Source: Alphaproteobacteria bacterium (lineage in GTDB: Bacteria; Pseudomonadota; Alphaproteobacteria; SHVW01). Taken from it: a DNA stretch of 64,000 nucleotides. Of this stretch, positions 5,035 to 23,832 are shown one piece after another. Below the pieces are notes generated by a model, which did no database searches, was not told the DNA's origin, and saw only the letters and a program-made list of their open reading frames with translations. Positions within the stretch are counted from its first letter, which is position 1. Each line of letters opens with the position of its first letter. Both the position numbers and the translations under genes were made by a program. The stretch is taken from contig VGDO01000001.1 in NCBI GenBank assembly GCA_016869645.1, positions 3,904-67,903 on the forward strand, in the 5' to 3' direction.

Positions 5035-5071
5035 GCCGCGCCCCTACAGGTGTCCACGGCGACCCGACACC

Positions 5072-7315: not shown

Positions 7316-7328
7316 GAGGAGGAACACC

Positions 7329-8303
7329 ATGCCCGCGCGCATTCTGTGCTGCCTTTTTGCCATCGCAGCCCTGCTCGCCGGCCCGGCGACGCATGTCTCG
7401 GCCCAGAGTTTCCCCGCCAAGTCGGTCCGCCTCGTCGTGCCCTATGCGCCGGGCGGCGGCACCGACAATCTGGTGCGCATCCTGGCTCCGGTCATCACGG
7501 CCAACAGCGGCCAGCAGATCATTATCGACAACCGTCCCGGGGCCGGCGGGACGATCGGCACCGACATCGTCGCGCGCTCGGCCCCCGATGGCTACACCAT
7601 CCTTGCCGCCGACAGCGCCTTCGTCGTCAATCCCGGCCTGCTCAGGAACATGCCCTACGACACGCTCAAGACGTTCCGCGGCGTCACCATGCTGGCGCAG
7701 GCGCCGGTCATCCTGGTCGCGCATCCTTCCGTGCCGGTCAAGACACTGGGCGAGTTCGTGTCGCTGGCCAAGTCGAAGCCGGGCATGCTGACCTACGCAT
7801 CGGGCGGCAATGGCTCGGCGCCGCACCTGGCGGGTGAATTGCTCAAGCTTGCCGCTGGCATCGACGTGCTGCACGTGCCCTACAAGGGCACGGCGCCGGC
7901 GATGAACGATCTGCTGGCAGGCCAGGTGTCCGTGCAGTTCTCCGGCATCAGTTCCAGCAAGCAGCACATCGATGCCGGCAAGCTGAACGCGCTGGCCGTG
8001 ACGGGCGCCCGGCGCAATCCGGCGGTGGCGAGCGTCCCGACCTTCATCGAGTCAGGCATCGCCGGCATCGACGCCGACAGCTATTGGGGCATCTATGCGC
8101 CGACCGGCACGCCGGACAGCGTTATTGCGGCGCTCAATGACCATTTTGTGCGCGCGATGCGCGCGCCACAGCTGGCCGACCGTCTGACCCAGCTCGGCTT
8201 CGAGCCGATCGCCAACTCGCCGGCCGAGCATGACCGCCAGATGCGCGCGATGATCGCGTCGTGGACCGACCTGATCAAGCGCGCCAACATCACCGCGGAT
8301 TGA
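7329..8303 (+). CDS. TctC/Bug-family tripartite tricarboxylate transporter substrate-binding protein
   Basis: ATG 7329 after AGGAGGAGG; signal peptide MPARILCCLFAIAALLAGPATHVSAQ; Bug-family body (PGGGTD, YASGG). Confidence 0.8.
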   Translation: MPARILCCLFAIAALLAGPATHVSAQSFPAKSVRLVVPYAPGGGTDNLVRILAPVITANSGQQIIIDNRPGAGGTIGTDIVARSAPDGYTILAADSAFVVNPGLLRNMPYDTLKTFRGVTMLAQAPVILVAHPSVPVKTLGEFVSLAKSKPGMLTYASGGNGSAPHLAGELLKLAAGIDVLHVPYKGTAPAMNDLLAGQVSVQFSGISSSKQHIDAGKLNALAVTGARRNPAVASVPTFIESGIAGIDADSYWGIYAPTGTPDSVIAALNDHFVRAMRAPQLADRLTQLGFEPIANSPAEHDRQMRAMIASWTDLIKRANITAD

Positions 8304-8327
8304 AACGACAACAAACGGAATCTCGCC

Positions 8328-9788: not shown

Positions 9789-11237
9789 CTAGCTGGCGTT
9801 TTGCCGGCGCGGCAGGTGCGGATCGGCCGGCAGGTCGGGCGGCGGGATCGGCTCGTGCAACAGGTCGCCGATCGCGATCGGCCGCACCGGAGGCCGCGTC
9901 CGCGGATAGTTGAGGCCGGCGATCGGTGTGCCTGATGCCTCGCTGACGATCGAGGCGAGCGTCGCCATGCAGTTGCGTCCCTGGCAGCGGCCCATGCCGG
10001 CGCGCGTCGTCGATTTGAGCTGAATCATGCTGTCGAGCGCCTCGGCCTGGCGGGCTTGGAGTTCGCCATGGGTCACCTCTTCGCAGCGGCACACCACGGT
10101 GTCGGCCGTCAGCAATCCCAGATAGTGGCTCGGACCGGCAAAGATCGCCTCGATGGCACGACGAAATTTGTCGGTCCGATCGAGCTGATCGCGAAGCGCC
10201 GCCCGGCGCTGCTCGGCGTTCCCGGCGCGACCCAAACGCGCGGCCACCTCCAGTCCAACCAGGCGGCCCTCGAGCAACGCAATCTCCACGCCGCCAATCG
10301 CCGCGCCGTCCCCGGCGGCAAATACGTTGGCGACCGATGTCTCCATGCGGTCGCTGCGCACGGCCAGCCAACCGCCACGACCGCGGTTGTAGCCCAGCTC
10401 GCAACCGATCAGGCGCAGAAGCTCGACCGATGGCGTCAGTCCAAAGCCGACGACAAGCGCGTCACACGCGATGGTTTCGCTCACCGCGCGGTCAACAGAG
10501 CCATCGAGGGCGATCGGCGCGATCGCTGCGTCCTGCACGGCGTCCGCGCCGCGTGCGGCCACGACTGTCATGCCTGTTCGCACCGGAACGCCGGCACGCA
10601 ACAAGCTCAGGCGATAGTCGAGTGCCTGGCGGAGGATTTTCGGCGCTGCCAGCATGCTGGGCCACGCGTGCAACAGACGTCGATTGATCGGCGCCGCCTC
10701 GACCACGGCCGCGACCTCGGCGCCGGCGCGAACCAAGCTCGCCGCGACGACGAAAAGAAGCGGACCGTTGCCGGCGACGACAATGCGCCGTCCCGGCACG
10801 ATGCGGTTGCCCTTGAGCAGATTCTGCGCGCCGCCGGCGCTGATCACACCCGGCAGGGTCCAGCCGGGAAAGGGCACGGGACGATCATGCGCGCCGGCAG
10901 CGATCAGCAACGCGCGGCCGCGCACACGCCCCGATCGCTCGCCGCCGGCGACCGCCAGCGTATCCGGCGCCGGCACGTCCCACACGACCGTGTCGGGAAG
11001 ATAGGTAATGCTCGGGTGGTCGAGCACGCGCAGCAACTCCGCGACGCGCGTCGCCTCCTTGTCGAACCAGGACCCGCCATCGCGGCGGAATTGCGCCGGT
11101 GGCTGCCGGAAGTACTGACCGCCGGCGCGTGGATTGTCGTCGACGACGGCGACCCGGAGGCCATGGGCGACCGCCTCGCCGGCTGCGGCAAGTCCGGCTG
11201 GACCGGCGCCGAGAATGGCAAGGTCGACCTCGATCAC
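9789..11237 (-). CDS. FAD/NAD(P)-binding oxidoreductase, alpha subunit of a heteromeric flavo-iron-sulfur dehydrogenase (HcnC/OoxA/D-hydroxyproline dehydrogenase alpha-like)
   Basis: GTG at 11237 gives a GTGA overlap with the 2Fe-2S gene stop. Dinucleotide-binding LAILGAGPAGLAAA, second Rossmann VVAGNGPLL, and a C-terminal BFD-like Cys cluster (CRCEEVTHG...CQGRNC). Confidence 0.65.
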   Translation of the reverse strand: MIEVDLAILGAGPAGLAAAGEAVAHGLRVAVVDDNPRAGGQYFRQPPAQFRRDGGSWFDKEATRVAELLRVLDHPSITYLPDTVVWDVPAPDTLAVAGGERSGRVRGRALLIAAGAHDRPVPFPGWTLPGVISAGGAQNLLKGNRIVPGRRIVVAGNGPLLFVVAASLVRAGAEVAAVVEAAPINRRLLHAWPSMLAAPKILRQALDYRLSLLRAGVPVRTGMTVVAARGADAVQDAAIAPIALDGSVDRAVSETIACDALVVGFGLTPSVELLRLIGCELGYNRGRGGWLAVRSDRMETSVANVFAAGDGAAIGGVEIALLEGRLVGLEVAARLGRAGNAEQRRAALRDQLDRTDKFRRAIEAIFAGPSHYLGLLTADTVVCRCEEVTHGELQARQAEALDSMIQLKSTTRAGMGRCQGRNCMATLASIVSEASGTPIAGLNYPRTRPPVRPIAIGDLLHEPIPPPDLPADPHLPRRQNAS

Positions 11238-11545
11238 GTCCGCTGCCCGACGCCGTGCTGCGTCTCGACACGCATGCCGGGTTTCGCTTCGGTCCGGCAC
11301 GTCCGCGTGTCGGTGACACCGTCGACCACCATCACACAGTCCCAGCACACGCCCATGCCGCAATGGTAACCGCGCGGCTCGCGGCGCTTCGCCGTGCGCC
11401 GCGCCGCAGCTCGTCCGGCTGCAAGCATCGCGGCGGCGATGCTCTCGCCGGGATAAGCAGTCACGGTTTCGCCATCGACCGAGAACTGAAACGCGCGGCC
11501 GCGATCAAGCCCGTCATCGACGCGTTGCTCTCGCTTGTCGCTCAT
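11234..11545 (-). CDS. (2Fe-2S)-binding small subunit (HcnA/OoxA-N-like gamma subunit)
   Basis: 103 aa; ...GYHCGMGVCWDCVMVVDG... cysteine motif. ATGA overlap with the upstream FAD subunit. Confidence 0.7.
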   Translation of the reverse strand: MSDKREQRVDDGLDRGRAFQFSVDGETVTAYPGESIAAAMLAAGRAAARRTAKRREPRGYHCGMGVCWDCVMVVDGVTDTRTCRTEAKPGMRVETQHGVGQRT

Positions 11546-12657
11546 GCTGCGAACCGCTTCGGAGCGAAGCGCTCCATCGGCAGCGAGGTGCGGCCAGAGG
11601 TGATCAGCTCCGCCATCAGGTGGCCGAGCGCCGGCCCTTGCGAATAGCCGCCGCGTGCGCAGGCATTGACGTAGACGCCGGCGCGACCGGGCAGCGGGCC
11701 GAACAGCGGCAGCGCATCGGGAACGACGCCCTCGAAGCCGGCCCAGCTTCGCACCAGCCTGAGCCGGGCGAGCGCCGGCACCACATTGGCGGCGACGCGC
11801 AGATTGTGCAGCAGATTCTCGTAGCCGATCTCCTTGACGCCGGTTGAGAGGCCGCCGCGCCCTTGCCAGCCGCCGCCGATCAGGCAGGTGCCGTTGGGAT
11901 ACTGTTTGAGCGAGAGAATGCCGCCAATGTGGGTCACGACGCGGTCGAGCAGCGGCGCGGTCGGCTCAGTGACGCTCAGCATGTTGACATCGGCCGACAC
12001 CGGCAGGTCGATGCCAAGCATTCGGGCCGCCTCGCCCGACCATGCGCCGGCCGCGATCACGAGAACGCGCGCCGTGATCGTCCCGGCGCCGGTCGTCACG
12101 CGATAGCCGGGTGAAACTTCGGCGATCGCCGTTGCCGCGGCGGCGCCGAGGATCGCCACGCCGGCGTGACGCGCCCCTTGGATGATCGCATGGCCGGCTT
12201 GCAACGGGCTCGAATAGGCATCCCAGTCGCACAAGGTCGCCGCCGTGACGGTGGGGCCGAGCCAGGGCGCCAGGTCGCGCAGCCGGTTGCCATCGAGCCA
12301 CTCCGTATCGAGACCGAGCTCACGCTGCTCGACCTGAGAGCGCCGGAGCATGTCGATCTCGCGCTCATTGGTCGCGACGCGCAGCCCGCCCGGGCGGCCG
12401 AATCCGACATCGATGCCAAATTCGGCCTTGAAGCCCTGCCAGAGCTCGACGGCGCGGCGCGTGATATTCAGCACCTCTGGCCGCTTGATCTGCACGGAGA
12501 GCGTGCCGGCATTGGCGCCCGACGCATCGCCCCACGGCTCGCCGCGGTCGATGACCGCGACGGTACGCCCGGCACGCGCGAGGTAGAGCGCCGTGCACAG
12601 CCCGGCAATGCCCGCGCCGATGACGAGGACGTCGGTGTCGGTGGGTAAACTACTCAC
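11542..12657 (-). CDS. FAD-dependent oxidoreductase (DAO family), beta subunit of heteromeric dehydrogenase
   Basis: GTG 12657 (VSSLPTDTDVLVIGAGIAGL...) chosen over the ORF-track start at 12831, which overlaps the DapA-like gene. GxGxxG FAD fold; C-terminal HLMAEL-type DAO region. Confidence 0.7.
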   Translation of the reverse strand: MSSLPTDTDVLVIGAGIAGLCTALYLARAGRTVAVIDRGEPWGDASGANAGTLSVQIKRPEVLNITRRAVELWQGFKAEFGIDVGFGRPGGLRVATNEREIDMLRRSQVEQRELGLDTEWLDGNRLRDLAPWLGPTVTAATLCDWDAYSSPLQAGHAIIQGARHAGVAILGAAAATAIAEVSPGYRVTTGAGTITARVLVIAAGAWSGEAARMLGIDLPVSADVNMLSVTEPTAPLLDRVVTHIGGILSLKQYPNGTCLIGGGWQGRGGLSTGVKEIGYENLLHNLRVAANVVPALARLRLVRSWAGFEGVVPDALPLFGPLPGRAGVYVNACARGGYSQGPALGHLMAELITSGRTSLPMERFAPKRFAA

Positions 12658-12672
12658 GAGGACGCTGGAGCT

Positions 12673-12698
12673 ACCCTCGCCCCCATCGGGGCGAGGGT
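12673..12698. repeat. intercistronic hairpin ACCCTCGCCCC-CAT-CGGGGCGAGGGT
   Basis: 11-bp perfect stem read directly, between the DapA-like stop (12704) and the FAD-beta start (12657). Transcribed strand is minus; no T-tract follows. Confidence 0.4.
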
Positions 12699-12703
12699 AA
12701 CGC

Positions 12704-13624
12704 CTACTCCGCTGCCCGGGCCTTACCGTCGAGTGCGCCGATGCCGGCGAGGACTTGGCGGAGCTTGTCGAGGCCGGCGGCGTCGACCGGTAGATGGGGT
12801 CGGCGTGGCAGGCCGCCGGGGCGCCCGGCAAGATTCATGCACGCCTTGATCACAACATAGGCGCCATAGCCGCCGACATAGAACGCTTCGTAGAGCCGAT
12901 CGATCGCAGCCTCGAGCGGCCGCGCCTCGCGATAGCGCCCGGCCAGGAGATGACCGCAGAAATCGACGGCGCGCCGGCCGATGATGTTGGCGGCCATCGA
13001 GACCGTGCCGACGGCGCCGCGGCCGATCATCGCCATGGCGTAAGGCTCTAGGCCGCAGAACACCGCGACGTCTCCGCCGATGCGGTTGAGCGTATCGGCC
13101 AGCGCGTAGAGATCCTTGGAGCTGTCCTTGAGCGCGACGATGGTCGGGAACTTGGCGAGCTTCTCGGCGAATGCCGGCGTGATCGTCACCTGGGTACGGC
13201 CCGGATTGTTGTACGCCATGATCGGCAGGCCGACACCAGCGACCGCCTCGAAGTGACCGAGCAGTTCCCGCTCATTGGGCAACGCATAGGGCGGCGCCAG
13301 CACCATGGCGCCGTCATAGCCGCGGTCGCTAGCGGATTGCGTCAAGGCAACCGTGTCGCGCGTCGAGATGGCCGAAGTACCGGCGATCAGCTTGACGCGC
13401 CCGGCTACCTGGTCCTGAGCCAGTTCGAAGAGACGCAGGCGTTCCGCGTCCGACAGCGTGTACCACTCGCCCGTGCTGCCGGCGACGATGATGCCTTGGA
13501 CGCCGTCGGCGACGAACTGATCCATCAGCCGACGGAATGCCGGCTCGTCGATGTCACCATTGTCGTCGAAAGGCGTCACCGAGACGACGAACACGCCGGT
13601 CCAGTCAGTCCTGCGCTTTGCCAT
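12704..13624 (-). CDS. DapA/dihydrodipicolinate-synthase-family lyase (Pyr4H2C deaminase / KDG-aldolase-like)
   Basis: ATG 13624 (MAKRRTDWTGVFVVSVTPF...); family motifs GSTGE...Y...K. 306 aa. Confidence 0.75.
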   Translation of the reverse strand: MAKRRTDWTGVFVVSVTPFDDNGDIDEPAFRRLMDQFVADGVQGIIVAGSTGEWYTLSDAERLRLFELAQDQVAGRVKLIAGTSAISTRDTVALTQSASDRGYDGAMVLAPPYALPNERELLGHFEAVAGVGLPIMAYNNPGRTQVTITPAFAEKLAKFPTIVALKDSSKDLYALADTLNRIGGDVAVFCGLEPYAMAMIGRGAVGTVSMAANIIGRRAVDFCGHLLAGRYREARPLEAAIDRLYEAFYVGGYGAYVVIKACMNLAGRPGGLPRRPHLPVDAAGLDKLRQVLAGIGALDGKARAAE

Positions 13625-13649
13625 AGCCCGTCCCCATTTGCGCGGCCGG

Positions 13650-14831
13650 TCACGCCTGGTTGCCGATGACCCTGTCGAGAACCCAATTGTTGATGCGATG
13701 GACCAATATCTCAAGCCGTCCGATGCGGCCGGCGCGATGAAACGGCGACATCAATCCGCGCTGCTGCAGCTCACAGGCGGCCGTATCCTCCGGGAAAACG
13801 GCATCCATCCGCTTGTAGTAGCGCTGGATGACGTCGTCGAAATCGGCGCGCGCCGCCGTCCTGCGCGGAAAGCAGAAACCAATCGTGAGCCGCGACTTGT
13901 GGGGGCCGAGCGGATCGGTGCGCACCCACCACATGCCGTCGATGCACATGCCGATGCTCGTGCTCGGGTAGAGGCTGGGATAGAAGGTGCCCTCCGCGGC
14001 GCGGCCGTTGATGCCCTCGATCGGCGGGAAGCCGGTATCGCCCATCAGCAGCATGCGGCTGCCCGGATGCTTCACATAGAGCGCTTCATATTGGCCGTGC
14101 GTGTCTTCGGGCGGATGCATCTGGCGCTTCTGGCGGTTGAGCGAGCCGCCATGCAGATAGGGAATGTGGTACTGCTCGGCGAAATTCTCGAAGAACAGCT
14201 TCCAATTGATCGGCAGCTCGACGGCGTTGCGCCGCACGCAGACGAGATCGTCGAGGTTGTAGGCCTCGGTGTTGTCGACAAGGTCGCCCAGATACTCGCG
14301 AAGGCTGATCGCGTCGTTGTCGAAATTGATGAAGATGAAGCCGCCCCAGGTCTCCAGCCTGATCGGCACGAGGCCGAGCTTCGACTTGTCGAAGCCGAGC
14401 GCGTCCTCCATCTCGGCCGCAACGAGAAGGTTGCCCTCGGTCGCATAGGTCCAGCCGTGATAGGGGCAACGGATCGCTTTGCAGTTGCCCTCGCCCTCGA
14501 CCAGGCGCGAGCCGCGATGGCGGCATGAATTGGAGAAAGCGCGCACCACGCCGTCCTTGCCGCGCATGATGATCACGGGGACGCCGACATAGTCGAAGGT
14601 GAAGTAGTCGCCGGGATTGGGAATGCGATCGACGCGATCGACGAAGTTCCACACCTTCATGAAGATGCGTTCGACTTCGCGCCGGTAGAAGCGCTCCGAG
14701 GTGTAGCACCAATTGGGCAGCGTCCCTGCCTCCATGACCGGCTTGCGTACGGCCACGTAGTGCCGCGGATGGAACATATCCTCCGGGAAGAACGTCTCGA
14801 TCGGCTGCTGCGCGAAGTCCGTAGCGAACAT
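13650..14831 (-). CDS. Rieske [2Fe-2S] non-heme-iron oxygenase alpha subunit (GbcA/Stc2/CntA-like N-demethylase/hydroxylase class)
   Basis: CRHRG...CPYHGW Rieske motif and a downstream mononuclear Fe region (E...H...H). 393 aa. No reductase partner adjacent. Confidence 0.8.
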   Translation of the reverse strand: MFATDFAQQPIETFFPEDMFHPRHYVAVRKPVMEAGTLPNWCYTSERFYRREVERIFMKVWNFVDRVDRIPNPGDYFTFDYVGVPVIIMRGKDGVVRAFSNSCRHRGSRLVEGEGNCKAIRCPYHGWTYATEGNLLVAAEMEDALGFDKSKLGLVPIRLETWGGFIFINFDNDAISLREYLGDLVDNTEAYNLDDLVCVRRNAVELPINWKLFFENFAEQYHIPYLHGGSLNRQKRQMHPPEDTHGQYEALYVKHPGSRMLLMGDTGFPPIEGINGRAAEGTFYPSLYPSTSIGMCIDGMWWVRTDPLGPHKSRLTIGFCFPRRTAARADFDDVIQRYYKRMDAVFPEDTAACELQQRGLMSPFHRAGRIGRLEILVHRINNWVLDRVIGNQA

Positions 14832-14836
14832 TGCAC

Positions 14837-15424
14837 CTATCTCGAGGCCAGGCTGAACGGCTTGCGCGCGAAGATCCGCTCCACGGCCGGCAGGAACGCC
14901 TGCAGCGGCATGGTGTCGTAGTTCGGATCGAACGCGGCCTGGTCCCAGCGGTCGCAGAATCGGATCGTGCGCTCATAGGCAGGATGGCCGCGATACTTGT
15001 CGCGTTCGTTGCGGTCCTGCCCCATGAAATGGAAGAAGTGGTAGCCTTGGAATGTGCGGTGATGCTGCAGCAGCCAATGATTCTCCGCCGTCACATAGGG
15101 CCTCAGAATCGCGGCAGCGTAGTCGCCGTGGCTGTGCGGCGCCAGATCGTCGCCGATGTCGTGCAGCAATGCGCACACGACGGTCTCTTCGTCCGCTCCC
15201 TCGCGCGAGGCGCGCGTGGCCGTCTGCAGGCAGTGCTCGAAGCGGTCGACCTGATAGCCGTAGCGATAGCCCTTGAGTCTGTGCAGCTGCTCGATGACGC
15301 GCTGGGCCAGCCCGGCTGTCTCATCCCGGTAGGCGCGCGCAACGATCGCCCAGTCCTCGGCGTCGCCATCGGCCATGGCGGTGCTCTTGACCGCGACGAC
15401 GTTCTGCTTCTCGGTGACCAGCAT
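14837..15424 (-). CDS. HD-domain protein, PhnZ/MIOX/TmpB-like putative mixed-valent diiron oxygenase (alternatively an HD phosphohydrolase)
   Basis: 195 aa; H...LLHDIGD...HSHGD...LLQHH...D ligand-like spacing comparable to PhnZ-type HD oxygenases. Stop is 3 nt before the Rieske start. Confidence 0.55.
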   Translation of the reverse strand: MLVTEKQNVVAVKSTAMADGDAEDWAIVARAYRDETAGLAQRVIEQLHRLKGYRYGYQVDRFEHCLQTATRASREGADEETVVCALLHDIGDDLAPHSHGDYAAAILRPYVTAENHWLLQHHRTFQGYHFFHFMGQDRNERDKYRGHPAYERTIRFCDRWDQAAFDPNYDTMPLQAFLPAVERIFARKPFSLASR

Positions 15425-15827
15425 GGCTGCGGTCTCCTTTTCTGGTCCCGCGCTCCGCGCGCGGGTGCATGTTCGTCATCTTAATCAGACGCGCTGTCGC
15501 TGACCATATGCTGACAACGCGCGAATATCGCAATTTCGTACGCACCGTCCGGCGCCATTGCTCAATATGCGCAACTGACGGGTTGCCCGTTGACACTCTT
15601 CCGGTGCCGCGGAAAAATGCCTGAAATTCTTGGCCCGATCGAGCAGCACGGCGGACAGATTTGGCGGCGACGGGTCTTGCACTTGACACCGACGGCTTCC
15701 TCGCTCGATCGTCGGGCGGCGACCAGCTGACACTGGATATCGCATCGCAATTGAGGCCAACCGAGCGCCGGCGATGGGCATGGCGCCGTCTTGACCGGTA
15801 GGATTCCGCGGGGGCAAGCTTTCGGAC

Positions 15828-16607
15828 ATGGCAAAGACAATCCTTACCCGCGTCGAACGCGGCGTCGGCATCGCTACGCTTAACAAGCCGGAGAAGCTCA
15901 ACGCCTGGGACGGCGCTATGCGCGCCGAGCTCAAGAAGGCGATCGAGGCCTTCGACCGCGACAAGTCGGTGCGCGCCATCATCCTGACCGGTGCTGGCGA
16001 CCGGGCCTTCTCGGCTGGCCAGGATCTCGACGAGACCAAGAAGTTCAAGGGCGGCAAGGAAGGCGCCGCCTGGTTCAAATCGTGGCGCGATTTCTACGAC
16101 TGCCTGCGCAAGCTCACGAAGCCGTGCATTGCCGCGCTCAACGGCGTGGCTGCCGGCTCGGCCTTTCAGTTCGCCATGCTGTGCGACATTCGCATCGGAC
16201 ATTCCGGCGTCACGATGGGCCAGCCCGAGATCAATGCGGGCATCCCAAGCGTGCTGGGGCCCCTGCTCATGATCGAGCGGCTCGGGCTGTCGCGCACGAT
16301 CGAGCTGACGCTCACGGGTCGCATGATGGGCGCCGAAGAGTGCCGGCACATCGGACTGATCCATCACCTCGTGCCCAAGGAGCAGGTGATGGCCAAGGCG
16401 ATCGAGGTGGCGGAGCTGCTCGCATCCAAGCCGTCGATCGCCATGCGCCTCAACCGCAAGCGCTTCCGGCAGGTGACCCAGGCGGCGTTCAACGAGGCGT
16501 TCAAATCAGGTCTGGCCATCCAACGCGAGGCCTATGCCTCGGGCGAACCCCAGGCCGCCATGGCGAAATTCTTCGCTGAGCGTGCCGCGCGCAAGTCCAA
16601 AGGATAG
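15828..16607 (+). CDS. enoyl-CoA hydratase/isomerase (crotonase family)
   Basis: 259 aa; crotonase fold motifs (ILTGAGDRAFSAGQDL, oxyanion-hole region). Confidence 0.8.
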   Translation: MAKTILTRVERGVGIATLNKPEKLNAWDGAMRAELKKAIEAFDRDKSVRAIILTGAGDRAFSAGQDLDETKKFKGGKEGAAWFKSWRDFYDCLRKLTKPCIAALNGVAAGSAFQFAMLCDIRIGHSGVTMGQPEINAGIPSVLGPLLMIERLGLSRTIELTLTGRMMGAEECRHIGLIHHLVPKEQVMAKAIEVAELLASKPSIAMRLNRKRFRQVTQAAFNEAFKSGLAIQREAYASGEPQAAMAKFFAERAARKSKG

Positions 16608-16770: not shown

Positions 16771-17862
16771 ATGATGACGGAAAAGCTCACACGCATCGGC
16801 AAACTCGTGATCGGGCGTCGCCGCGTCCTCAAGATCGCCGGCGGCGCCACCCTTGTTCTGGCCGCGCCGGCCTACTGGAAAAAGCTGAGCGCGCAGGAGA
16901 AACGCATTGTCGTGCGCGATCCGGGCGGCCCCTACACGGCCGGCTTCAATGAAGCCTTCCATGAGCCGTTCAAGAAGGCGACGGGCATCGAGTCCGTCGG
17001 CGTCGCCGGCCAGCACGAGCCGACCAGCCTGATCAAGGGCATGGTCGACACCAAGACCTACACCTGGGACATGGCGCTGCTGTCCCAGGCGGCCCATGAC
17101 CAGCTCGTCTCCGAGGGCAACTATCTCGAAGATCTCAAGATCGACACGCCGGGCCTGCGCTCCACGCCGGACCACTTCAAGTCGGCCAAGTATGCCGGCA
17201 ATGACGTGTTCACGGCGATGTTCGCGATCCGCACGGACCATTTCAAAGGCAATGAGCCGAAGTCTTGGGCGGACATCTGGAACGTCAAGGACTTCCCCGG
17301 CCGGCGCAGCCTGCGCAAGCATCCGTTCGACACGATCGAGGAAGCCCTGCTGGCCGACGGCGTGCCCGGGGACAAGCTCTATCCGTGCGACATTCCGCGC
17401 GCGCTCAAGAAGCTCGACGCCATCAAGAAGGACGTTGCGGTGTGGTGGACGGGCGGCGCCCAGACCTCGCAGATGCTCAAGACTGGCGAGGTTCACATCT
17501 GCACGACCTGGAACGCCCGCGCGCAGGCCGCGATCGACGAAGGCGCTCCCGTCAAGATCGTGTGGAACCAGAACCTCTGGAGCTCCGAGGGCTGGTGCAT
17601 CATCAGGGGCACGCCCAAGGCCGACATGTGCCGCGAGTTCATCAAGTTCGCGGTCGATGGCGCGCGCCAGGCGGCCTGGACCAAGCATGTTGCTTACGGT
17701 CCGACGCATCCGGACGCCTTCAAGCACATTCCCGAGGCGCGGGCGAAGCAGTTGCCGACCTATCCGGACAACTTCAAGACGGCCATCCGCGCCGATCCGG
17801 TCTACTGGGCAAAGCACAAGGACAAGGTGACCGAGCAGTTCGAGGCTTGGCTCCTCACCTAG
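16771..17862 (+). CDS. ABC transporter substrate-binding protein, PotD/PotF-like (polyamine/amine)
   Basis: ORF-track start 16762 is GTG; ATG 16771 or 16774 follows GGTGGAGG. Tat-like signal RRRVLKIAGGATLVLAAPA. Confidence 0.75.
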   Translation: MMTEKLTRIGKLVIGRRRVLKIAGGATLVLAAPAYWKKLSAQEKRIVVRDPGGPYTAGFNEAFHEPFKKATGIESVGVAGQHEPTSLIKGMVDTKTYTWDMALLSQAAHDQLVSEGNYLEDLKIDTPGLRSTPDHFKSAKYAGNDVFTAMFAIRTDHFKGNEPKSWADIWNVKDFPGRRSLRKHPFDTIEEALLADGVPGDKLYPCDIPRALKKLDAIKKDVAVWWTGGAQTSQMLKTGEVHICTTWNARAQAAIDEGAPVKIVWNQNLWSSEGWCIIRGTPKADMCREFIKFAVDGARQAAWTKHVAYGPTHPDAFKHIPEARAKQLPTYPDNFKTAIRADPVYWAKHKDKVTEQFEAWLLT

Positions 17863-17980: not shown

Positions 17981-19066
17981 ATGACCGGAACCACTGAAAA
18001 GCTGCGCGTGAGGGACCTACGCAAGACCTACGGCCAGGTCGTGGCGCTGACCGACGCTCAATTCGATCTCGCCGAGGGCGAATTCCTGACGCTGCTTGGG
18101 CCTTCGGGTTCGGGCAAGACCACCATGCTGATGATCATCGCCGGGCTGATTCAGCCCGACAAGGGCGAGGTCTGGATCGACGGCAAGCTTGCGACTTTCG
18201 CACCAAGCTACAAGCGCGACATCGGCATGGTGTTCCAGAACTATGCGCTGTTCCCGCACATGACCGTGCATGAGAACATCGCCTTTCCGCTGCGCATGCG
18301 CCGCATGGCGGAGAGCAAGATCCGCGACGAGGTTCAGCGCGTGCTCGACATCGTCCGCCTGCCGCATGTCGCTGACCGCCTGCCTCGCGCGCTGTCGGGC
18401 GGCCAGCAGCAGCGCATCGCGCTCGCGCGCTGCATGGTCTACCGGCCATCGATCATCCTCATGGACGAGCCGCTGGGCGCGCTCGACAAGAAGCTGCGCG
18501 ACCAGATGCAGCTCGAGATCAAGCAGCTCCACACCGAACTCGGCATCACCATCCTCTACGTCACGCACGACCAAGAGGAAGCGATGATCATGTCCGACCG
18601 GATCTGCCTGATGAACGACGCGCGAATCGAGCAGCTGGGCACCCCCGCCGATCTCTATTTCAAACCGCGCACGGTGTTCGCCGCCGACTTTCTCGGTGAA
18701 TCGAACCTGCTGGATGGGGTGGTGCAGAGCGCCGGCCACGGCCGTGCCACGGTCAAGTCGGCCGGTGACGCCGTGATCAAGGCGCCGGCAGCCGACGTCT
18801 TCGCAGTCGGCCAGGCTGTCAAATTCATGGTCCGGCCCGAACGTCTGCGGCTGCTCGATCCGGTCGAGAGCGCCGATAACGTGATCGAGGGCACGCTCGA
18901 CCAGATCATCATGGTCGGCGGCGTGACCAAGTACTACGTCCGCCTGCCGACCGGCCCGGTGGTCTCGGCGACCCGCCTGACCCGCGGGCCCGTGACCGGA
19001 CTGGAGCGCGGCACGCGCGTGCGCCTGGGCTGGCCGGCCGATAGCACCGTCCTGCTGCCGACATGA
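17981..19066 (+). CDS. ABC transporter ATP-binding protein, PotA/PotG-like
   Basis: Walker A GPSGSGKTT, signature LSGGQQQR, Walker B ILLMDEP; C-terminal TOBE-like domain. Confidence 0.85.
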   Translation: MTGTTEKLRVRDLRKTYGQVVALTDAQFDLAEGEFLTLLGPSGSGKTTMLMIIAGLIQPDKGEVWIDGKLATFAPSYKRDIGMVFQNYALFPHMTVHENIAFPLRMRRMAESKIRDEVQRVLDIVRLPHVADRLPRALSGGQQQRIALARCMVYRPSIILMDEPLGALDKKLRDQMQLEIKQLHTELGITILYVTHDQEEAMIMSDRICLMNDARIEQLGTPADLYFKPRTVFAADFLGESNLLDGVVQSAGHGRATVKSAGDAVIKAPAADVFAVGQAVKFMVRPERLRLLDPVESADNVIEGTLDQIIMVGGVTKYYVRLPTGPVVSATRLTRGPVTGLERGTRVRLGWPADSTVLLPT

Positions 19067-20880
19067 CGGCCGCCGGCCGCCGCTTCGGCGCCTGGCGCGC
19101 CGCATGGCCGCTGCTGCCGGTCCTGATCTTCCTGGGCTTCTTCTTCCTCTACCCGGTCGGCCAGTTGCTCTGGCTCAGCGTCGAGATCAAGGGTACTGGC
19201 GCCTTGACCGCGATGCACTATCAGCGGCTGTTCGCCTCGACGCTCTACGTGAAGGTCCTGCAGATCACGCTGGAGACCTCGGCGTGGTGCACCTTCTTCT
19301 CGATCGTCGGCGGCTATCCGGTCGCCTATCTCCTGGCGACGACCAGCGAGCGCCGACGCAACAATCTGATGCTGTGGATCCTGCTGCCGTTCTGGACCAG
19401 CTTTCTCGTTCGTACTTTCGCGTGGATCGTCCTGCTCGGACGCAATGGCGCAATCAACGGCTGGTTACAGGCGCTCGGCCTGACCGACGAGCCGCTGTCG
19501 CTGATCTACAACTTCACCGGCGTCATGATCGGCATGACACACGCGCTCATGCCGCTCGCCATCCTCACGATGGTCTCCGTGATGGAGCAGATCGACGCCA
19601 ACCTGCCGAAGGCGGCCTCGACCCTGGGCGCGCGCGGCGGCCAGGCGTTCTGGCGCATTTACTTCCCGCTGTCGCTGCCGGGCGTGGCGGCCGGCGGCCT
19701 GCTCGTCTTCATCACGGCGATCGGCTTCTTCATCACGCCGGCGCTGCTCGGCGGCCGACTGCAGACCATGATTGCCCAAGTGATCATCACGCAAGTCCAG
19801 GATCTGATGAACTGGGCATTTGCCGGCGCTGTGTCCGTGCTGCTCCTTGTCACGGCGTTGGTCGTCTTCTATCTCTACGACCGCGCGCTCGGCATGTCGA
19901 CGCTGGCGGGCGAGACGCCGTCGACCCAGGGCGGCGGCGGACGCAACCCGATTGCGCGGCTTTCCGCATGGATCGGCGGCCACCTGCTGGGCGCCATCGG
20001 CCGCCTGTGCGACATCGTGTCGGAAGCCTATGAGCGCCTGGTGCCGCGGCCAGCTAGCCGGCCGACACGGGAATGGTCGCGCGGCGTGCTGGCCTTCCTC
20101 GTGTTCCTGATCATCTTCTTCCTGGCGGCGCCGACCTTCTTCATCGTCCCCGTCTCGTTCACGACCGACGCCTTCATCGAATGGCCGCCCAAATTCTTCA
20201 GTCTGCGGTGGTATGACACCGTGTTCGTCTCGCCGCTCTGGCGCGAAGCGATCGTCCGCTCGTTGCTGGTCGGGGTCTTGTCGGCTTCTCTCGCCATGGT
20301 GGTCGGCGCGCCGGCCGCTTTCGTGCTCGTGCGACAGCGCATCATGGGCAAGACAGCCCTGCTCGCTCTCGTGTTGTCGCCGCTGATCATCCCACGCATC
20401 ATCATTGCCGTGGCGCTGTTCTACTTCTATGCGCGGTTCGGCGCCCTGATCAACGTCCGGTTCATCGGCACCTCGCTTGGCCTGGTCCTGGGCCACGCCG
20501 TTCTGGCCATTCCCTATGTCGTCGTCACGGTCATGGCCGTGCTCAAGAACTACGACGAGCGACTCGACCAGGCAGCCGGCAGCCTTGGCGCCAATCCGGT
20601 TCGAACGCTGTGGCACGTGACCATCCCGCTGATCCGCTCCGGGCTGATCGCGGCATTTCTTTTCGCCTTCATCACTTCGTTCGACGAGCTGACCATCGCG
20701 CTCTTCGTCTCGGGCGGCTTGGCGACCACCTTGCCGAAGCAGATGTGGGACGATGCGCTGCTCAAGGTCAATCCGACGCTCGCCGCGGTGTCGACGATCC
20801 TGCTGGTCTTCATCACCGGCATGATCCTCGCCGCCGAATATCTGCGCCGGCGCGCGCTGGGCCGGAGCTCGGCCGCATGA
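19063..20880 (+). CDS. fused ABC permease (PotB-like + PotC-like domains in one 605-aa polypeptide)
   Basis: Two successive permease halves, each with an EAA-like loop (first half ...AASTLGARGGQAFWRIYFPL..., second half ...AAGSLGANPVRTLWHVTIPL...). ATGA overlaps at both ends. Confidence 0.75.
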   Translation: MTAAGRRFGAWRAAWPLLPVLIFLGFFFLYPVGQLLWLSVEIKGTGALTAMHYQRLFASTLYVKVLQITLETSAWCTFFSIVGGYPVAYLLATTSERRRNNLMLWILLPFWTSFLVRTFAWIVLLGRNGAINGWLQALGLTDEPLSLIYNFTGVMIGMTHALMPLAILTMVSVMEQIDANLPKAASTLGARGGQAFWRIYFPLSLPGVAAGGLLVFITAIGFFITPALLGGRLQTMIAQVIITQVQDLMNWAFAGAVSVLLLVTALVVFYLYDRALGMSTLAGETPSTQGGGGRNPIARLSAWIGGHLLGAIGRLCDIVSEAYERLVPRPASRPTREWSRGVLAFLVFLIIFFLAAPTFFIVPVSFTTDAFIEWPPKFFSLRWYDTVFVSPLWREAIVRSLLVGVLSASLAMVVGAPAAFVLVRQRIMGKTALLALVLSPLIIPRIIIAVALFYFYARFGALINVRFIGTSLGLVLGHAVLAIPYVVVTVMAVLKNYDERLDQAAGSLGANPVRTLWHVTIPLIRSGLIAAFLFAFITSFDELTIALFVSGGLATTLPKQMWDDALLKVNPTLAAVSTILLVFITGMILAAEYLRRRALGRSSAA

Positions 20881-22109
20881 AGGTCACCGTCATCGGCGCC
20901 GGCATCGTCGGCATGTGCTGCGCCAGCTACCTGCAACGCGACGGCCACGACGTCACGGTGATCGACGCGGTTGACCCTGGCGAGAGCTGCTCGTTCGGCA
21001 ATGCCGGCGGGCTCTCGCCCGGCTCGATCATGCCCGTGGCGACGCCGGGCATGCTGAGTCAGGTGCCGAAATGGCTGGCCGATCCGCTCGGGCCGCTCGC
21101 CATCCGTTGGGGCTACCTGCTGCCGGTGCTGCCCTGGCTCGTCAAGTTCGTGCACGCCGGGCGCATGGAGCGGGTCATCGAGGTCGCCGCCGCGCTGCGC
21201 AGCCTGCTCAAGCCGGTCTTCGAGTCCTATGACCCGATCGCCAAGGCGGCGGGCGCCCAAGGTCTCATTCACCGCAGCGGCCAGATGCATGTCTACCGCT
21301 CGGAAGCGGCCTTCCGCGGCGATGCGCTTGGCTGGAAGATCCGGCGCGACCATGGCTGCGAGATCGAAGAAATCGACGCCCACCAAATTCGCCAGATCGA
21401 ACCGGCGCTGGCGCCGATCTTTGCGCGCGGCATCCATTTTCCGACCCATGGCCATTGCTCGAACCCGTTCCGCCTCGTGCAAATGTTGGCCGAGCAGCTG
21501 GTGCGCAATGGCGGCACGATCATGCGCCGCCGCGTCCAAGGCTTCCGGCTCGATGCACGCGGCCCGACCGCGCTAAAGACCGATGGCGGCGATGTCGAGA
21601 TCGACCGGCTGGTGATCGCGGCCGGCGCGTGGTCGCACAAATTGTCGCGCGAGCTGGGCAGCGCCGTGCCGCTCGAGAGCCAGCGCGGCTACCATGTCAC
21701 CGTCGCCGAGCCCGGCGTGGCGCCGCGCATCAACGTCATGTGGGCAGACGCCAAGTTCATGGCGACGCCGATGGACGTCGGGCTGCGCTTCGCGGGCACT
21801 GTCGAACTCGCCGGCCTCAACGCGCCGCCAGACTACCGCCGCGCAGAGGTCCTGCTTCAGCGCGGCAAGCAGATGTATCCCGGTGTGAAGGACGCAAGAG
21901 TCTCGGAGTGGATGGGCCACCGTCCATGCACGCCGGATACGATACCCGTGATCTCGCGCTCGCCGCACTGGTCTCAGGTCTTTTACGCCTTCGGCCACGG
22001 CCATACGGGCCTAAGCGGCGCGTCGACCACCGGGCGCGTCATTGCCGACCTCGTTGCCGGCCGGCCCCCCGTCATCGATGTCAGCCCGTTCCGGATCGAT
22101 CGCTTCTAG
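20877..22109 (+). CDS. FAD-dependent oxidoreductase, D-amino-acid dehydrogenase (DadA)-like
   Basis: MKVTVIGAGIVGMCCASYL FAD fold; ATGA overlap with the permease stop. Confidence 0.7.
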   Translation: MKVTVIGAGIVGMCCASYLQRDGHDVTVIDAVDPGESCSFGNAGGLSPGSIMPVATPGMLSQVPKWLADPLGPLAIRWGYLLPVLPWLVKFVHAGRMERVIEVAAALRSLLKPVFESYDPIAKAAGAQGLIHRSGQMHVYRSEAAFRGDALGWKIRRDHGCEIEEIDAHQIRQIEPALAPIFARGIHFPTHGHCSNPFRLVQMLAEQLVRNGGTIMRRRVQGFRLDARGPTALKTDGGDVEIDRLVIAAGAWSHKLSRELGSAVPLESQRGYHVTVAEPGVAPRINVMWADAKFMATPMDVGLRFAGTVELAGLNAPPDYRRAEVLLQRGKQMYPGVKDARVSEWMGHRPCTPDTIPVISRSPHWSQVFYAFGHGHTGLSGASTTGRVIADLVAGRPPVIDVSPFRIDRF

Positions 22110-23064: not shown

Positions 23065-23832
23065 TCAGGAAGCGTATTCCGGCTGGGTCCGGTCGAACTC
23101 GTCCTTGAACGCCTGCAGCAGGAGCATGGCGTTGTAGTGTCGGTTGGAGTAGCTGTCGCGCGTGGCGCGGCTCAGCTCATCGGGGATGATGCGCAGCGGC
23201 CGACCGGTCGACATGGCCAGCACCTGGACCTGGCAAGCACGCTCCAGGTAGTAGAGATCGTCAAGGGCGTCGGCGACCGTCGGGCCGACCACGACGACAC
23301 CGTGATTGCCGAGGAACAGCACGGTCCTGTCGCCCATGATGCTGGCCATCCGGTCGCCTTCCTCGGTGCCGAAGGCGAAGCCATTGAAGTCCTCGTCATA
23401 GGCGACGCGCTCGAAGAAGCGCGTGGCGTTCTGATGCATCATCTCCAGCCGGCCGCCCTGGATGGCGGTCAACGCCGTGGCATAGGGCATGTGGGTGTGC
23501 AGCACCACGGCCGCGTTGGGATGATGCAGGTGGATTCGCGTGTGGATGCAGTAGCCGGTGATCGAGACGTCGCCCTCGCCTTCCACGACTTTGCCGTGGT
23601 CGTCCATGACCAGCAGTTTGCTGGCCGTGGCGTCCTGCCAATGCATGCCTTTCGCACCGATCAGGAACCGGTCGCGCCGGCCGGCCAGCATCAAGGTCAT
23701 GTGGTTGCAGATGCCCTCGTGGAACCCAAGCTTGGCCGCGGCCCGGTGCGCGCAGGCGAGGTCGATGCGCGCCTCGACATCCTCGCGCCGGTTGCCGTGC
23801 AACGCCGTGACTTTGCCCCTCTCGATCGCCAT
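23065..23832 (-). CDS. class II aldolase/adducin-family protein
   Basis: ATG 23832 (MAIERGKVTALHG...) after GGAGGGG. Metal-binding His pattern H..HxH (HLHHPNAAVVLHTHMPY). The ORF-track start at 24018 is rejected. Confidence 0.7.
   Translation of the reverse strand: MAIERGKVTALHGNRREDVEARIDLACAHRAAAKLGFHEGICNHMTLMLAGRRDRFLIGAKGMHWQDATASKLLVMDDHGKVVEGEGDVSITGYCIHTRIHLHHPNAAVVLHTHMPYATALTAIQGGRLEMMHQNATRFFERVAYDEDFNGFAFGTEEGDRMASIMGDRTVLFLGNHGVVVVGPTVADALDDLYYLERACQVQVLAMSTGRPLRIIPDELSRATRDSYSNRHYNAMLLLQAFKDEFDRTQPEYAS

Follow-up and report, generated by a model that had tools for sequence, protein, structure and literature searches.

The window analysed here, a 64-kb stretch of DNA (63–71% G+C) from an uncultured freshwater alphaproteobacterium, carries at positions 9789–15424 an operon of six genes. 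In order of transcription they encode an HD-domain protein, a Rieske non-haem-iron oxygenase, a Schiff-base lyase of the DapA/dihydrodipicolinate synthase (DHDPS) family, and the three subunits (beta, gamma and alpha) of a heterotrimeric amine dehydrogenase (Table 1). We compared the gene models with the list of open reading frames (ORFs), with Pfam matches and with gene calls that public resources had made independently on identical contigs, and all three agree with the original prediction for this DNA, which had placed six co-directional genes on the minus strand at these coordinates. Proteins 100% identical to those of the window occur on freshwater metagenome contigs (JGI 3300020197 and 3300020214) and in an NCBI metagenome-assembled genome (MAG; MBM3596574-87). 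The beta gene is present as predicted, although its product measures 371 residues from a GTG start and not 372. The GenBank annotation of the MAG uses other starts than the JGI, ENA and Logan calls, giving an alpha subunit of 524 aa (9789–11363), a beta subunit of 430 aa (11542–12831) and an HD protein of 179 aa. The 482-residue alpha model begins at an overlapping GTGA junction (524 aa in GenBank), and the 195-residue HD model has an AAGGAG ribosome-binding site 8 nt 5' of its ATG (179 aa in GenBank).

Table 1. Features of the operon, the divergent transporter unit and their surroundings (positions in the window).
Feature	Coordinates	Strand	Length and remarks
Alpha FAD/NAD-fold subunit with BFD-like [2Fe-2S] domain	9789..11237	-	482 aa; Pfam Pyr_redox_2 + Fer2_BFD + SO_alpha_A3
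Gamma [2Fe-2S] subunit	11234..11545	-	103 aa; Pfam Fer2_4
Beta (catalytic FAD) subunit of heterotrimeric amine dehydrogenase	11542..12657	-	371 aa; Pfam DAO, soxB-family hidden Markov model (HMM)
Hairpin in DapA/beta spacer	12672..12699	-	perfect 12-bp stem, no T-run
DapA/DHDPS-family Schiff-base lyase	12704..13624	-	306 aa; Pfam DHDPS, 213 bits
Rieske non-haem-iron oxygenase alpha subunit	13650..14831	-	393 aa; Pfam Rieske + Ring_hydroxyl_A
HD-domain protein	14837..15424	-	195 aa; first gene of the operon; Pfam HD
Divergent intergenic region between the HD and enoyl-CoA hydratase genes	15425..15827		403 bp; presumed two promoters
Enoyl-CoA hydratase/crotonase (ECH)	15828..16607	+	259 aa; Pfam ECH_1
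ABC substrate-binding protein	16774..17862	+	362 aa; SBP_bac_8
PotA-type ATPase	17981..19066	+	potA subfamily HMM, 355.5 bits (cutoff 355.6)
Fused double permease	19063..20880	+	PotB and PotC halves both matched
DadA/HypO-type FAD dehydrogenase	20877..22109	+	410 aa; last gene of the transporter unit
Class II aldolase-family protein	23065..23832	-	255 aa; NCBIfam PRK06486, 283 bits (cutoff 269)

Only the beta/gamma (ATGA) and gamma/alpha (GTGA) junctions overlap, by 4 nt each; gaps of 5, 25 and 46 nt separate HD from Rieske, Rieske from DapA-like and DapA-like from beta, respectively. The earlier description of the junctions as nearly all coupled is therefore overstated: it fits the two overlaps and the close HD/Rieske spacing, but not the 25- and 46-nt gaps. 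Between the genes of the operon we found no promoter- or terminator-like site except one weak sigma-70-like match (13714–13686). The 46-nt spacer holds a hairpin formed by the inverted repeat TACCCTCGCCCC-N4-GGGGCGAGGGTA (RNA fold −39.5 kcal/mol, z = −5.2), which occurs once in the window. It may act in mRNA processing or stability and so adjust the dosage of one half of the operon relative to the other. The hairpin is apparently absent from the Baikal orthologue, where the spacer is about 27 nt as judged by the ends of tblastn matches and not by folding. At the distal end, the stop codons of alpha and of a convergent amidase gene are 6 nt apart. Membership of this amidase gene and the accompanying TctC gene (7329–9782) in the system had been left open, and we rejected both as candidates: neither adjoins the cluster in four related loci (L009, L011, L095 and L013), the last of these being the Baikal relative with 75–86% identity.

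The Rieske protein contains a CxH..CxxH motif at residue 103 and a 2-His iron site with bridging Glu (E219-x2-H222-x4-H227), and no gene for a small (beta) subunit lies near it, which corresponds to an alpha-only architecture. In sequence searches its best solved relative was CntA (2e-42), over the N-terminal 200 residues only, and Stc2 (3vca/4qup) likewise aligned over the N-terminal half only; the NCBIfam HMM for GbcA scored 153 bits against a cutoff of 670 bits. We then searched an AlphaFold2 (AF2) model (predicted local distance difference test score, pLDDT, 91) against the PDB with Foldseek, and the top 18 matches were all CntA (27–28% identity), Stc2 (25%) or 3n0q. Template modelling (TM) scores against these Group V structures ranged from 0.74 to 0.85 with E-values of about 1e-32, and terephthalate dioxygenase followed four orders of magnitude behind in E-value. 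Judged by its modelled fold, the protein is a Group V-like (quaternary-ammonium type) oxygenase, not an orthologue of Stc2/HpbB1, CntA or GbcA. The suggested match to betaine N-demethylases accordingly survives as to nearest fold, which is Group V, and fails as to Stc2/HpbB1 orthology (25% identity to Stc2, 27–28% to CntA, no reductase gene among the window ORFs scanned).

Sequence searches with the HD protein, which the original prediction had treated as a generic HD protein, returned only weak N-terminal matches to PhnZ and TmpB. The corresponding HMMs scored far under their cutoffs (TIGR03276 for PhnZ, 48 versus 214.6 bits; NF049941 for TmpB, 37 versus 300), and by these scores the protein is outside both equivalog families. 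Its putative metal ligands (H64, H88-D89, H99, H122 and D161, the dinuclear H..HD..H..H..D set; PMC8177086) are invariant in 25 homologues of 53–85% identity. In the YxxE substrate loop, Glu27 of PhnZ corresponds to Tyr57 here; Tyr55 is not a conserved residue of the family. A fold search with an AF2 model (pLDDT 91) against the PDB, with significance set at E below 1e-3, yielded PhnZ and TmpB as the only significant folds (TM 0.62–0.71), whereas HD hydrolases gave E-values above 0.1 and TM-scores of 0.37 or less, and MIOX gave a TM-score of 0.52. The model thus replaces the generic label with a PhnZ/TmpB-like fold, and the protein is probably a mixed-valent diiron oxygenase of this type and not a phosphatase.

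This HD family (COG4341) is large and well conserved, with 5,521 search hits; homologues of roughly 45–60% identity, more than 5,000 in number, occur in Halomonas, Dongia, cyanobacteria and marine metagenomes. Relatives of 52–58% identity adjoin genes for TauD enzymes resembling gamma-butyrobetaine hydroxylase (GBBH), proteins resembling dimethylglycine dehydrogenase (DMGDH), MttB and OpuAC; the homologue in Dongia deserti, for example, lies near an MttB-family methyltransferase gene. We surveyed the immediate neighbours of HD homologues at 80 metagenome loci and found TauD at six (four with a GBBH-like N domain), DMGDH-like DAO+GCV_T proteins at four to five, class II aldolases at four, RACo at three, MttB contexts at three, PhyH at two and a Rieske protein at one (L121, 37% identical to the Rieske protein of the window), the last being an independent HD-Rieske neighbour pair. 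These neighbours place the closest relatives of the HD protein within methylated-amine metabolism, often next to an iron hydroxylase as in PhnY/PhnZ and TmpA/TmpB, and this proximity to hydroxylase and methylamine genes suggests that the Rieske and HD proteins form a putative oxygenase pair.

In Halomonas garicola (L106, 5889–12147, together with L109), a homologue of 54% identity lies in an operon that encodes an AraC regulator, a GBBH-like TauD enzyme, the HD protein (4-nt overlap), a thiamine pyrophosphate enzyme, OpuAC, a class II aldolase and an aminotransferase, and which from its gene content looks like a TmpA/TmpB-style quaternary-amine pathway in a culturable organism. Homologues of a more distant marine subgroup have a glutamine amidotransferase (GATase) gene upstream (16–20 loci) and a GCS2 gene downstream (13 loci). 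There a conserved three-gene unit on one strand, counted in 16–20 of 72 loci that are mostly marine, encodes a class-II glutamine amidotransferase/phosphoribosyltransferase-like protein (about 493 aa), the HD protein (45–50% identity) and a GCS2 carboxylate-amine ligase (about 431 aa); loci of this kind include L118, L128, L131, L134–L136, L144–L146, L151, L152, L163, L165 and L173.

The DapA-like protein retains the DapA residues T45, Y107, Y133, R138 and K161 but scored 196.3 bits on the dapA equivalog HMM, below the cutoff of 206.15. For comparison we used two verified hydroxyproline (Hyp) clusters: one on S. meliloti pSymB (DHDPS, Aldedh, ABC, DAO, Pro_racemase and AcnX, confirmed with Pfam) and one on a B. 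multivorans replicon (FAD oxidoreductase, DHDPS, Aldedh, ABC and 4-Hyp epimerase). The protein is 23% identical to S. meliloti HypD, 27% to the LhpC-type protein of B. multivorans, 29% to E. coli DapA and 26–29% to the DHDPS proteins whose genes are joined to plasmid dehydrogenase trimers. In a neighbour-joining tree it forms, with its relatives of 40–82% identity, a clade apart from both the Hyp deaminases and E. coli DapA. Cutoff and clade together place it outside true DapA, of which the genuine DapA-like gene at L096 is an example (47% identical to E. coli DapA, compared to 29–31% for the protein of the window). Since the two Hyp-cluster deaminases are themselves only 27% identical to each other, deamination of Δ1-pyrroline-4-hydroxy-2-carboxylate (Pyr4H2C) may have arisen more than once. 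The closest homologue in a cultured organism (44–45% identity; S. meliloti GR4 pRmeGR4b, L093) is divergent from a dapB-like reductase gene and neighbours an amidohydrolase, a Liv-type ABC transporter and the nfe1/nfe2/ornithine cyclodeaminase (OCD) genes for nodulation efficiency.

Motifs throughout the dehydrogenase subunits place them, as judged from sequence, in the heterotrimeric flavin/Fe-S amine dehydrogenase family that includes D-hydroxyproline dehydrogenase (D-HypDH), opine dehydrogenase (OpnDH) and HCN synthase. The beta subunit has GxGxxG and RxW motifs and its best PDB match is the beta chain of P. horikoshii L-proline dehydrogenase (1y56_B); gamma has Cx4Cx2Cx12C at residue 62; and alpha has GxGxxG and CxC..Cx4C, with 1y56_A and SoxA as PDB relatives. 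Watanabe et al. list the ADP-binding, RxW and both cluster motifs for D-HypDH, opine dehydrogenase and archaeal L-proline dehydrogenase (PMC4575208). The spacer of the alpha CxC...Cx4C motif is 32 residues here, compared to 15–20 in that report, and the Pfam Fer2_BFD match is still significant. Because D-HypDH and OdhB-C-A are both encoded in the order beta-gamma-alpha with overlaps (PMC4575208), gene order cannot separate D-HypDH from opine dehydrogenase. Our comparison set consisted of one Ti-plasmid opine trimer and uncharacterised plasmid trimers. The beta and alpha subunits are 33–34% identical (beta 34%) to the Ti-plasmid trimer, whose neighbours are a gene of the octopine/nopaline dehydrogenase family and an ABC transporter. 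Beta is 36–40% identical to trimers on plasmids of Acidisoma, Burkholderia, Pantoea, R. leguminosarum and Sulfitobacter, with 39% to the beta subunits of DHDPS-linked plasmid clusters. A Burkholderia plasmid was rejected as a heterotrimeric D-HypDH reference, as the B. multivorans Hyp cluster carries a homomeric enzyme. The original proposal that the last four genes match D-HypDH plus a Pyr4H2C deaminase therefore holds for the trimer motifs, their order and the linked DapA-family lyase, but order gives no D-HypDH specificity and deaminase orthology is not supported.

Coupling of a DHDPS-family gene to such a trimer is itself recurrent. Seven related loci show direct coupling of the DHDPS gene to beta-gamma-alpha, and three separate DHDPS clades, that of the window and two mutually unrelated ones on plasmids, are each coupled to a trimer of this type. 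One plasmid clade (L094, Acidisoma; L103, Burkholderia pBTU; L104, Pantoea) has a gamma-alpha-beta trimer with dihydropyrimidinase/hydantoinase, GntR and amino-acid ABC transporter genes; the other (L101, R. leguminosarum p3; L102, Sulfitobacter) has a gamma-alpha-beta trimer with IclR, BKACE, aminotransferase, CoA transferase, SMP-30 and short-chain dehydrogenase/reductase (SDR) genes. No hydroxyproline epimerase gene was found in these five plasmid clusters, and an aldehyde dehydrogenase-family gene occurs only in R. leguminosarum, about 3 kb downstream of the SDR gene. As a precedent for the module we considered and rejected the homoserine catabolism cluster of R. leguminosarum pRL8, which has neither the DHDPS nor the trimer genes. 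Modules of the "DHDPS + HcnABC-like" kind thus recur in at least three independent clades and therefore are not automatically hydroxyproline genes; their recurring logic, in which a dehydrogenase makes a 2-imino or 2-oxo acid that a Schiff-base lyase consumes, is not hydroxyproline-specific. We found no literature on clusters that combine Rieske, DHDPS and HcnABC-like genes.

We then scanned one genome per GTDB species with the Rieske protein, supplemented by exact-protein look-ups. The Baikal MAG locus L013 keeps Rieske-DHDPS-beta-gamma-alpha at 68–86% identity together with an HD gene, and two further MAG lineages (L009/L010 and L011/L012/L095) keep the same five genes at 53–77% identity without HD. 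Three loci (L096, a Chromatiales; L097; and L099) keep DHDPS-beta-gamma-alpha without Rieske or HD, with DapA-like orthologues of 50–65% identity. These orders are not due to chance: Rieske-DHDPS-beta-gamma-alpha recurs in four further lineages at 63–86% identity, and DHDPS-beta-gamma-alpha in three more. Five of the six related lineages also keep the divergent ECH gene (61–86% identity) and the PotA-type ABC transporter with its SBP_bac_8 protein and fused permease; the exception is L097, which has no detected ECH orthologue and far more distant ABC genes. All Rieske-bearing loci have the 410-residue DadA-like dehydrogenase gene at the end of the transporter unit. Near the cluster an AMP-binding CoA ligase gene recurs (L009, L011/L012/L095, L096 and L097), while acyl-CoA dehydrogenase (ACAD), OCD/mu-crystallin, IclR, M20 deacylase and class II aldolase genes each lie beside it in some loci only. 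OCD/mu-crystallin genes adjoin the cluster in L011, L095, L096 and L099, and the Rieske-less clusters L096 and L099 include arginase, OCD and M20 deacylase genes. Since related loci retain DapA-like, beta-gamma-alpha, ECH and transporter without Rieske, HD or both, comparative gene content identifies the former as the putative conserved core and Rieske and HD as lineage-specific additions.

The species scan found the full cluster in MAGs only, and the search for a cultured organism that carries it was unsuccessful; Rieske homologues of 59% identity or less were paralogues in unrelated contexts. Among them, Oceanibaculum indicum (L007), L008 and L016 have paralogues of 52–57% identity, two copies per cluster, alongside a LysR regulator, two DUF1989 proteins, an amino-acid ABC transporter, a 2-hydroxyacid dehydrogenase and an M20 peptidase, with no reductase gene in any of the three clusters. 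We take DUF1989 to be the carboxyguanidine deiminase family. At L096 (13881–20918) the core is adjoined by Beta_elim_lyase, the true DapA-like gene, M20, arginase and a second, divergent beta-gamma-alpha set (29–44% identity), which suggests subunit or module duplication for related substrates.

The 403-bp region that separates the operon from the divergent transporter unit contains one sigma-70-like site on the plus strand (15590–15618) and a single weak palindrome as the only operator-like inverted repeat; no regulator gene adjoins it, and Rfam gave no match to a riboswitch or other known RNA there or elsewhere in the window. ECH orthologues (61–86% identity) adjoin the cluster in L009, L010, L011, L013, L095, L096 and L099. 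Binding-protein orthologues are conserved at 49–84% identity and the ATPase and permease at 62–84%. The best PDB matches of the binding protein are 4i1d, 3rpw, GABA-binding Atu4243, the iGABASnFR parent, agropine-binding AgtB and mannopine-related MotA/AttC. Orthologues of the terminal 410-residue dehydrogenase have 64–81% identity in all Rieske-bearing loci. This enzyme is 38% identical to S. meliloti HypO, 40% to the B. multivorans Hyp-cluster enzyme and 28% to E. coli DadA. The three enzymes are 38–41% identical to one another and all 28–29% identical to DadA, a resemblance that is the best single point for a presumed imino-acid substrate. However, the contexts of closer plasmid homologues (45–47%) are creatinine/hydantoin, TctABC and beta-hydroxyaspartate; the similarity to HypO is therefore not diagnostic, and we rejected it as proof of D-hydroxyproline chemistry. 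Judged from their annotations, the conserved partners of the cluster (ECH, the GABA/mannopine-type ABC transporter, CoA ligase and often ACAD or OCD) are foreign to known Hyp- and Pro-betaine pathways.

Farther along the window, the class II aldolase-family gene is possibly an accessory gene; it has orthologues in L013 (80%) and L009 (60%), and its family often directly adjoins HD homologues elsewhere. Positions 24017–30820 hold a row of genes for an NDP-forming CoA ligase, an M20 deacylase, an ACAD, a family-III CoA transferase and an OCD/mu-crystallin protein (about 29900–30820), followed at 30805–32664 by a 619-residue protein with a C-terminal B12-binding domain. Carnitine/gamma-butyrobetaine genes of the Cai type were considered and rejected, the ECH and ACAD being neither CaiD- nor CaiA-like by NCBIfam ranking. 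OCD-family proteins are of the Δ1-pyrroline-2-carboxylate (Pyr2C) reductase (LhpI) or cyclodeaminase type (PMC3958920), and the OCD genes, with the arginase genes of the Rieske-less relatives, suggest opine-like compounds or substrates derived from proline, ornithine or lysine. An SDR, a BKACE and a 4HBT_2 thioesterase gene lie at 33465–35778; by analogy this set resembles the logic of dehydrocarnitine or 3-keto-5-aminohexanoate cleavage and may belong to the same pathway. On the R. leguminosarum and Sulfitobacter plasmids, too, the DHDPS-trimer module is accompanied by BKACE, family-III CoA transferase and SDR genes. The remainder (1–9782 and 35782–64000) encodes two amidases, an AstE/AspA-type deacylase, amidohydrolases, an M81 peptidase, a D-serine-dehydratase-like/BhcC-like protein, hydantoinase A/B with IclR, a pyridoxal phosphate-dependent decarboxylase and at least four more ABC sets (SBP_bac_8, NMT1-type and SBP_bac_5/oligo_HPY). 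Its gene content marks the whole window as a predicted catabolic island.

Taken together, these data support a role of the operon in the breakdown of an N-alkylated amino or imino acid, probably one that is N-methylated or quaternary. The mechanism proposed here is generic, its steps go beyond family membership, and we give it about even odds. The substrate would be taken up via the divergent PotA-type ABC transporter. The Rieske and HD proteins, as O2-dependent iron enzymes by family and fold, would then attack the ammonium end: the Rieske enzyme may hydroxylate the carbon next to nitrogen, leading to N-dealkylation or C-N cleavage, and the diiron HD oxygenase may carry out a PhnZ/TmpB-like oxidative cleavage of the hydroxylated intermediate. 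Beta-gamma-alpha, whose family chemistry is known, would oxidise the alpha C-N bond of a presumed intermediate to a 2-imino or 2-oxo acid and pass the electrons through FAD, FMN and [2Fe-2S] clusters to the respiratory chain. The lysine of the DapA-family enzyme would take the product, for deamination/dehydration like that of a Pyr4H2C deaminase or for retro-aldol cleavage to pyruvate and an aldehyde, and the DadA/HypO-type dehydrogenase, ECH and CoA-activating enzymes would process the carbon skeleton. Historically, an old core of DapA-like lyase, beta-gamma-alpha, ECH and transporter may in this lineage have acquired the Rieske gene and then the HD gene, which would have opened the pathway to alkylated substrates. 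A more novel proposal, which we offer as a tentative possibility well short of probable, is that HD is a PhnZ/TmpB-type diiron oxygenase whose partner is a Rieske hydroxylase in place of an Fe/2-oxoglutarate one. The two oxygenases would then make up a new route in which a C-C, C-N or C-P bond of a quaternary-ammonium compound is cleaved and the product passes to the lyase/dehydrogenase module, and COG4341 would by extension be a large clade of oxygenases tied to methylated amines and now annotated as phosphohydrolases.

Several observations weigh against the generic mechanism. The Rieske protein lacks the Cys-x-x-Cys pair that CntA, Stc2 and some Group V members have beside the mononuclear iron (PMC10952381): where CntA has E-C-Y-H-C with Cys206/Cys209, the Rieske protein has E-Q-Y-H-I, with Gln and Ile in place of the cysteines, and CntA Tyr203 is replaced by Phe, so quaternary-amine specificity is not assured. 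A reductase partner gene for the protein is also lacking: the scanned ORFs of the window and the loci L009, L011, L013 and L095 contain neither an FNR-type nor a Fer2/FAD_binding_6 reductase (HpbC/CntB/GbcB type). The chemistry of an HD protein cannot be inferred from sequence alone (PMC8177086), and the largest metagenome group of HD homologues sits with GATase and GCS2 and not with hydroxylases. The core needs neither oxygenase, because the Rieske gene is absent from L096, L097 and L099 and HD occurs in only two of the five Rieske-bearing lineages, namely the window and L013, being absent from L009, L011 and L095. Finally, the gaps of 25 and 46 nt with the hairpin leave room for separate regulation of the operon halves.

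The last of these points bears on the possibility that the operon juxtaposes two modules with no shared intermediate, HD plus Rieske acting on a methylated amine or phosphonate and DapA-like plus trimer acting on a D-amino or imino acid. The 25-nt gap after Rieske, the 46-nt gap with its −39.5 kcal/mol hairpin before beta, the persistence of DapA-like plus trimer where Rieske (L096, L097 and L099) or HD (L009, L011 and L095) is absent, and the many unrelated contexts of the HD family all speak for such a division. We nevertheless judge it rather unlikely: the six genes lie on one strand with short gaps and only one weak internal sigma-70-like match (13714–13686), the Rieske-DHDPS adjacency is kept in five lineages at identities down to 63%, and Rieske co-occurs with the 410-residue dehydrogenase of the divergent unit. 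The specific assignment to (hydroxy)proline-betaine catabolism made in the original prediction was also not supported by our comparisons, and we regard it as unlikely. It would have Rieske remove the first N-methyl group and the DapA-like protein act as the Pyr4H2C deaminase, with beta-gamma-alpha or the DadA/HypO-type enzyme serving as N-methyl-imino-acid demethylase and D-hydroxyproline dehydrogenase, and the OCD enzyme reducing Pyr2C for the non-hydroxylated branch. The closeness of the Rieske fold to the stachydrine demethylase Stc2, the D-HypDH architecture of beta-gamma-alpha (PMC4575208), a 410-residue dehydrogenase as close to HypO and the B. multivorans enzyme as these are to each other (38–41%), and OCD/mu-crystallin genes of the LhpI family (PMC3958920), which lie at about 29900–30820 in the window and adjoin the cluster in L011, L095, L096 and L099, are all consistent with it. 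However, the Rieske protein is 25% identical to Stc2, equally close to CntA, and has no HpbC1-like reductive partner (PMC3950512), and the DapA-like protein is only 23–27% identical to the two Hyp-cluster deaminases. The prediction had itself observed that the hydroxyproline epimerase and the α-ketoglutaric semialdehyde (KGSA) dehydrogenase are missing from the operon, and we agree: neither the scanned ORFs of the window nor the seven related loci contain a Pro_racemase, MR_MLE, HpbD-type or Aldedh gene, by the method that detected epimerase and KGSA dehydrogenase-type genes in both Hyp reference clusters. In addition, the binding protein is of GABA/opine and not betaine (OpuAC/ProX) type, the closer homologues of the 410-residue dehydrogenase (45–47%) lie in non-hydroxyproline contexts, and a Hyp- or Pro-betaine pathway offers no role for the conserved ECH and CoA genes.

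The same binding protein, related to the mannopine/agropine binders MotA, AttC and AgtB, would fit opine-type catabolism, in which beta-gamma-alpha splits a secondary-amine dicarboxylate, such as an N-(carboxyalkyl) basic or omega-amino acid, to yield an amino acid together with a 2-oxo acid for the DapA-like lyase, and Rieske and HD tailor a modified variant. So would the identity of beta and alpha (33–34%) to the Ti-plasmid trimer beside an octopine/nopaline dehydrogenase-family gene and ABC transporter, and the M20 deacylase, arginase and OCD genes of L096 and L099, the latter two being classic followers of octopine/nopaline cleavage (PMC4575208). We consider this quite improbable, since 34% identity is no higher than that to non-opine trimers (36–40%), the cluster in the window lacks arginase, one Ti-plasmid opine region examined has no DapA-family gene, and the Group V-like Rieske and HD genes are left unexplained. 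Classic occ and noc operons are not known to include a DapA-family gene, and octopine and nopaline transporters use binding proteins of the SBP_bac_3 type, both of which we count against opine catabolism. An HCN synthase of the HcnABC kind, making cyanide from glycine, would account for the homology of beta, gamma and alpha to HcnC, HcnA and HcnB (PMC4575208), and a housekeeping, lysine-biosynthetic DapA would account for the retained catalytic residues and the 196 bits on the dapA HMM; either is exceedingly improbable given the catabolic context with a transporter. The DapA-like protein scores under the curated cutoff and falls in a clade apart from E. coli DapA and the true DapA-like gene of L096 (47%), and no dapB gene lies nearby. 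The genes of hcnABC run gamma-alpha-beta, opposite to the beta-gamma-alpha order of the window, which counts against HCN synthase.

If worked out, the operon for N-alkylated amino or imino acids proposed here would reveal a new route by which uncultured Alphaproteobacteria abundant in freshwater break down a nitrogen-rich small molecule (a betaine, an N-methyl amino acid or an opine-like compound). A DapA clade whose members are routinely mis-annotated as lysine-biosynthetic would gain a function, and the chemistry of HD-domain oxygenases would reach beyond phosphonates. Most interesting are the possible pairing of Rieske and HD as two oxygenases and the large unstudied family of HD-oxygenase-like proteins behind it.

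Compared to the phosphonate systems PhnY/PhnZ and TmpA/TmpB, the HD protein shares the ligand set, the fold and the closeness (5 nt) to an iron hydroxylase gene, and its homologues are coupled to GBBH-like TauD genes. The window differs in having a Rieske partner in place of an Fe/2-oxoglutarate enzyme, HMM scores below cutoff, Tyr in place of the YxxE Glu and no phosphonate genes, and because of this last absence the bond cleaved may not be C-P. Group V Rieske enzymes (CntA, Stc2/HpbB1 and GbcA/BmoA) provide the best fold matches of the Rieske protein and share its alpha-only architecture, its Rieske and 2-His motifs and its bridging Glu, whereas identity is only 25–28%, Gln and Ile replace the Cys pair and a gene for a reductase of the CntB/GbcB/HpbC type is lacking. 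Relative to the HpbA-G systems of Paracoccus denitrificans and Rhodobacter sphaeroides and the stc genes of S. meliloti, the step logic is similar (Rieske demethylase, flavin demethylase/dehydrogenase and a DapA-type step), but the window lacks HpbD racemase, HpbC reductase and KGSA dehydrogenase, has another transporter type and added ECH/CoA genes, and shares no orthologous component.

The DapA-like protein and the Pyr4H2C deaminases LhpC and HypD belong to the same DHDPS/NAL family, have the Schiff-base lysine and are encoded next to an imino-acid dehydrogenase. At 23% and 27% identity, however, the protein of the window falls in a separate clade and keeps the DapA Arg138 ('PGRT') that both deaminases lack, and its gene has no epimerase or KGSA dehydrogenase gene nearby. 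The trimer resembles LhpB/E/F of P. aeruginosa and A. brasilense, OdhABC/Oox/Nox and HcnABC in its DAO beta, Fer2_4 gamma and Pyr_redox_2/BFD alpha subunits, as well as in its beta-gamma-alpha order with 4-nt overlaps, and differs in its distance (34% to the Ti-plasmid beta subunit, 36–40% to others) and in sharing an operon with Rieske and HD oxygenases. Each component of the operon thus comes from a known enzyme family, and it is their combination, an HD oxygenase-like protein, a Group V-like Rieske protein, a distinct DapA clade and a trimer of the D-HypDH/opine dehydrogenase type, that is previously undescribed.

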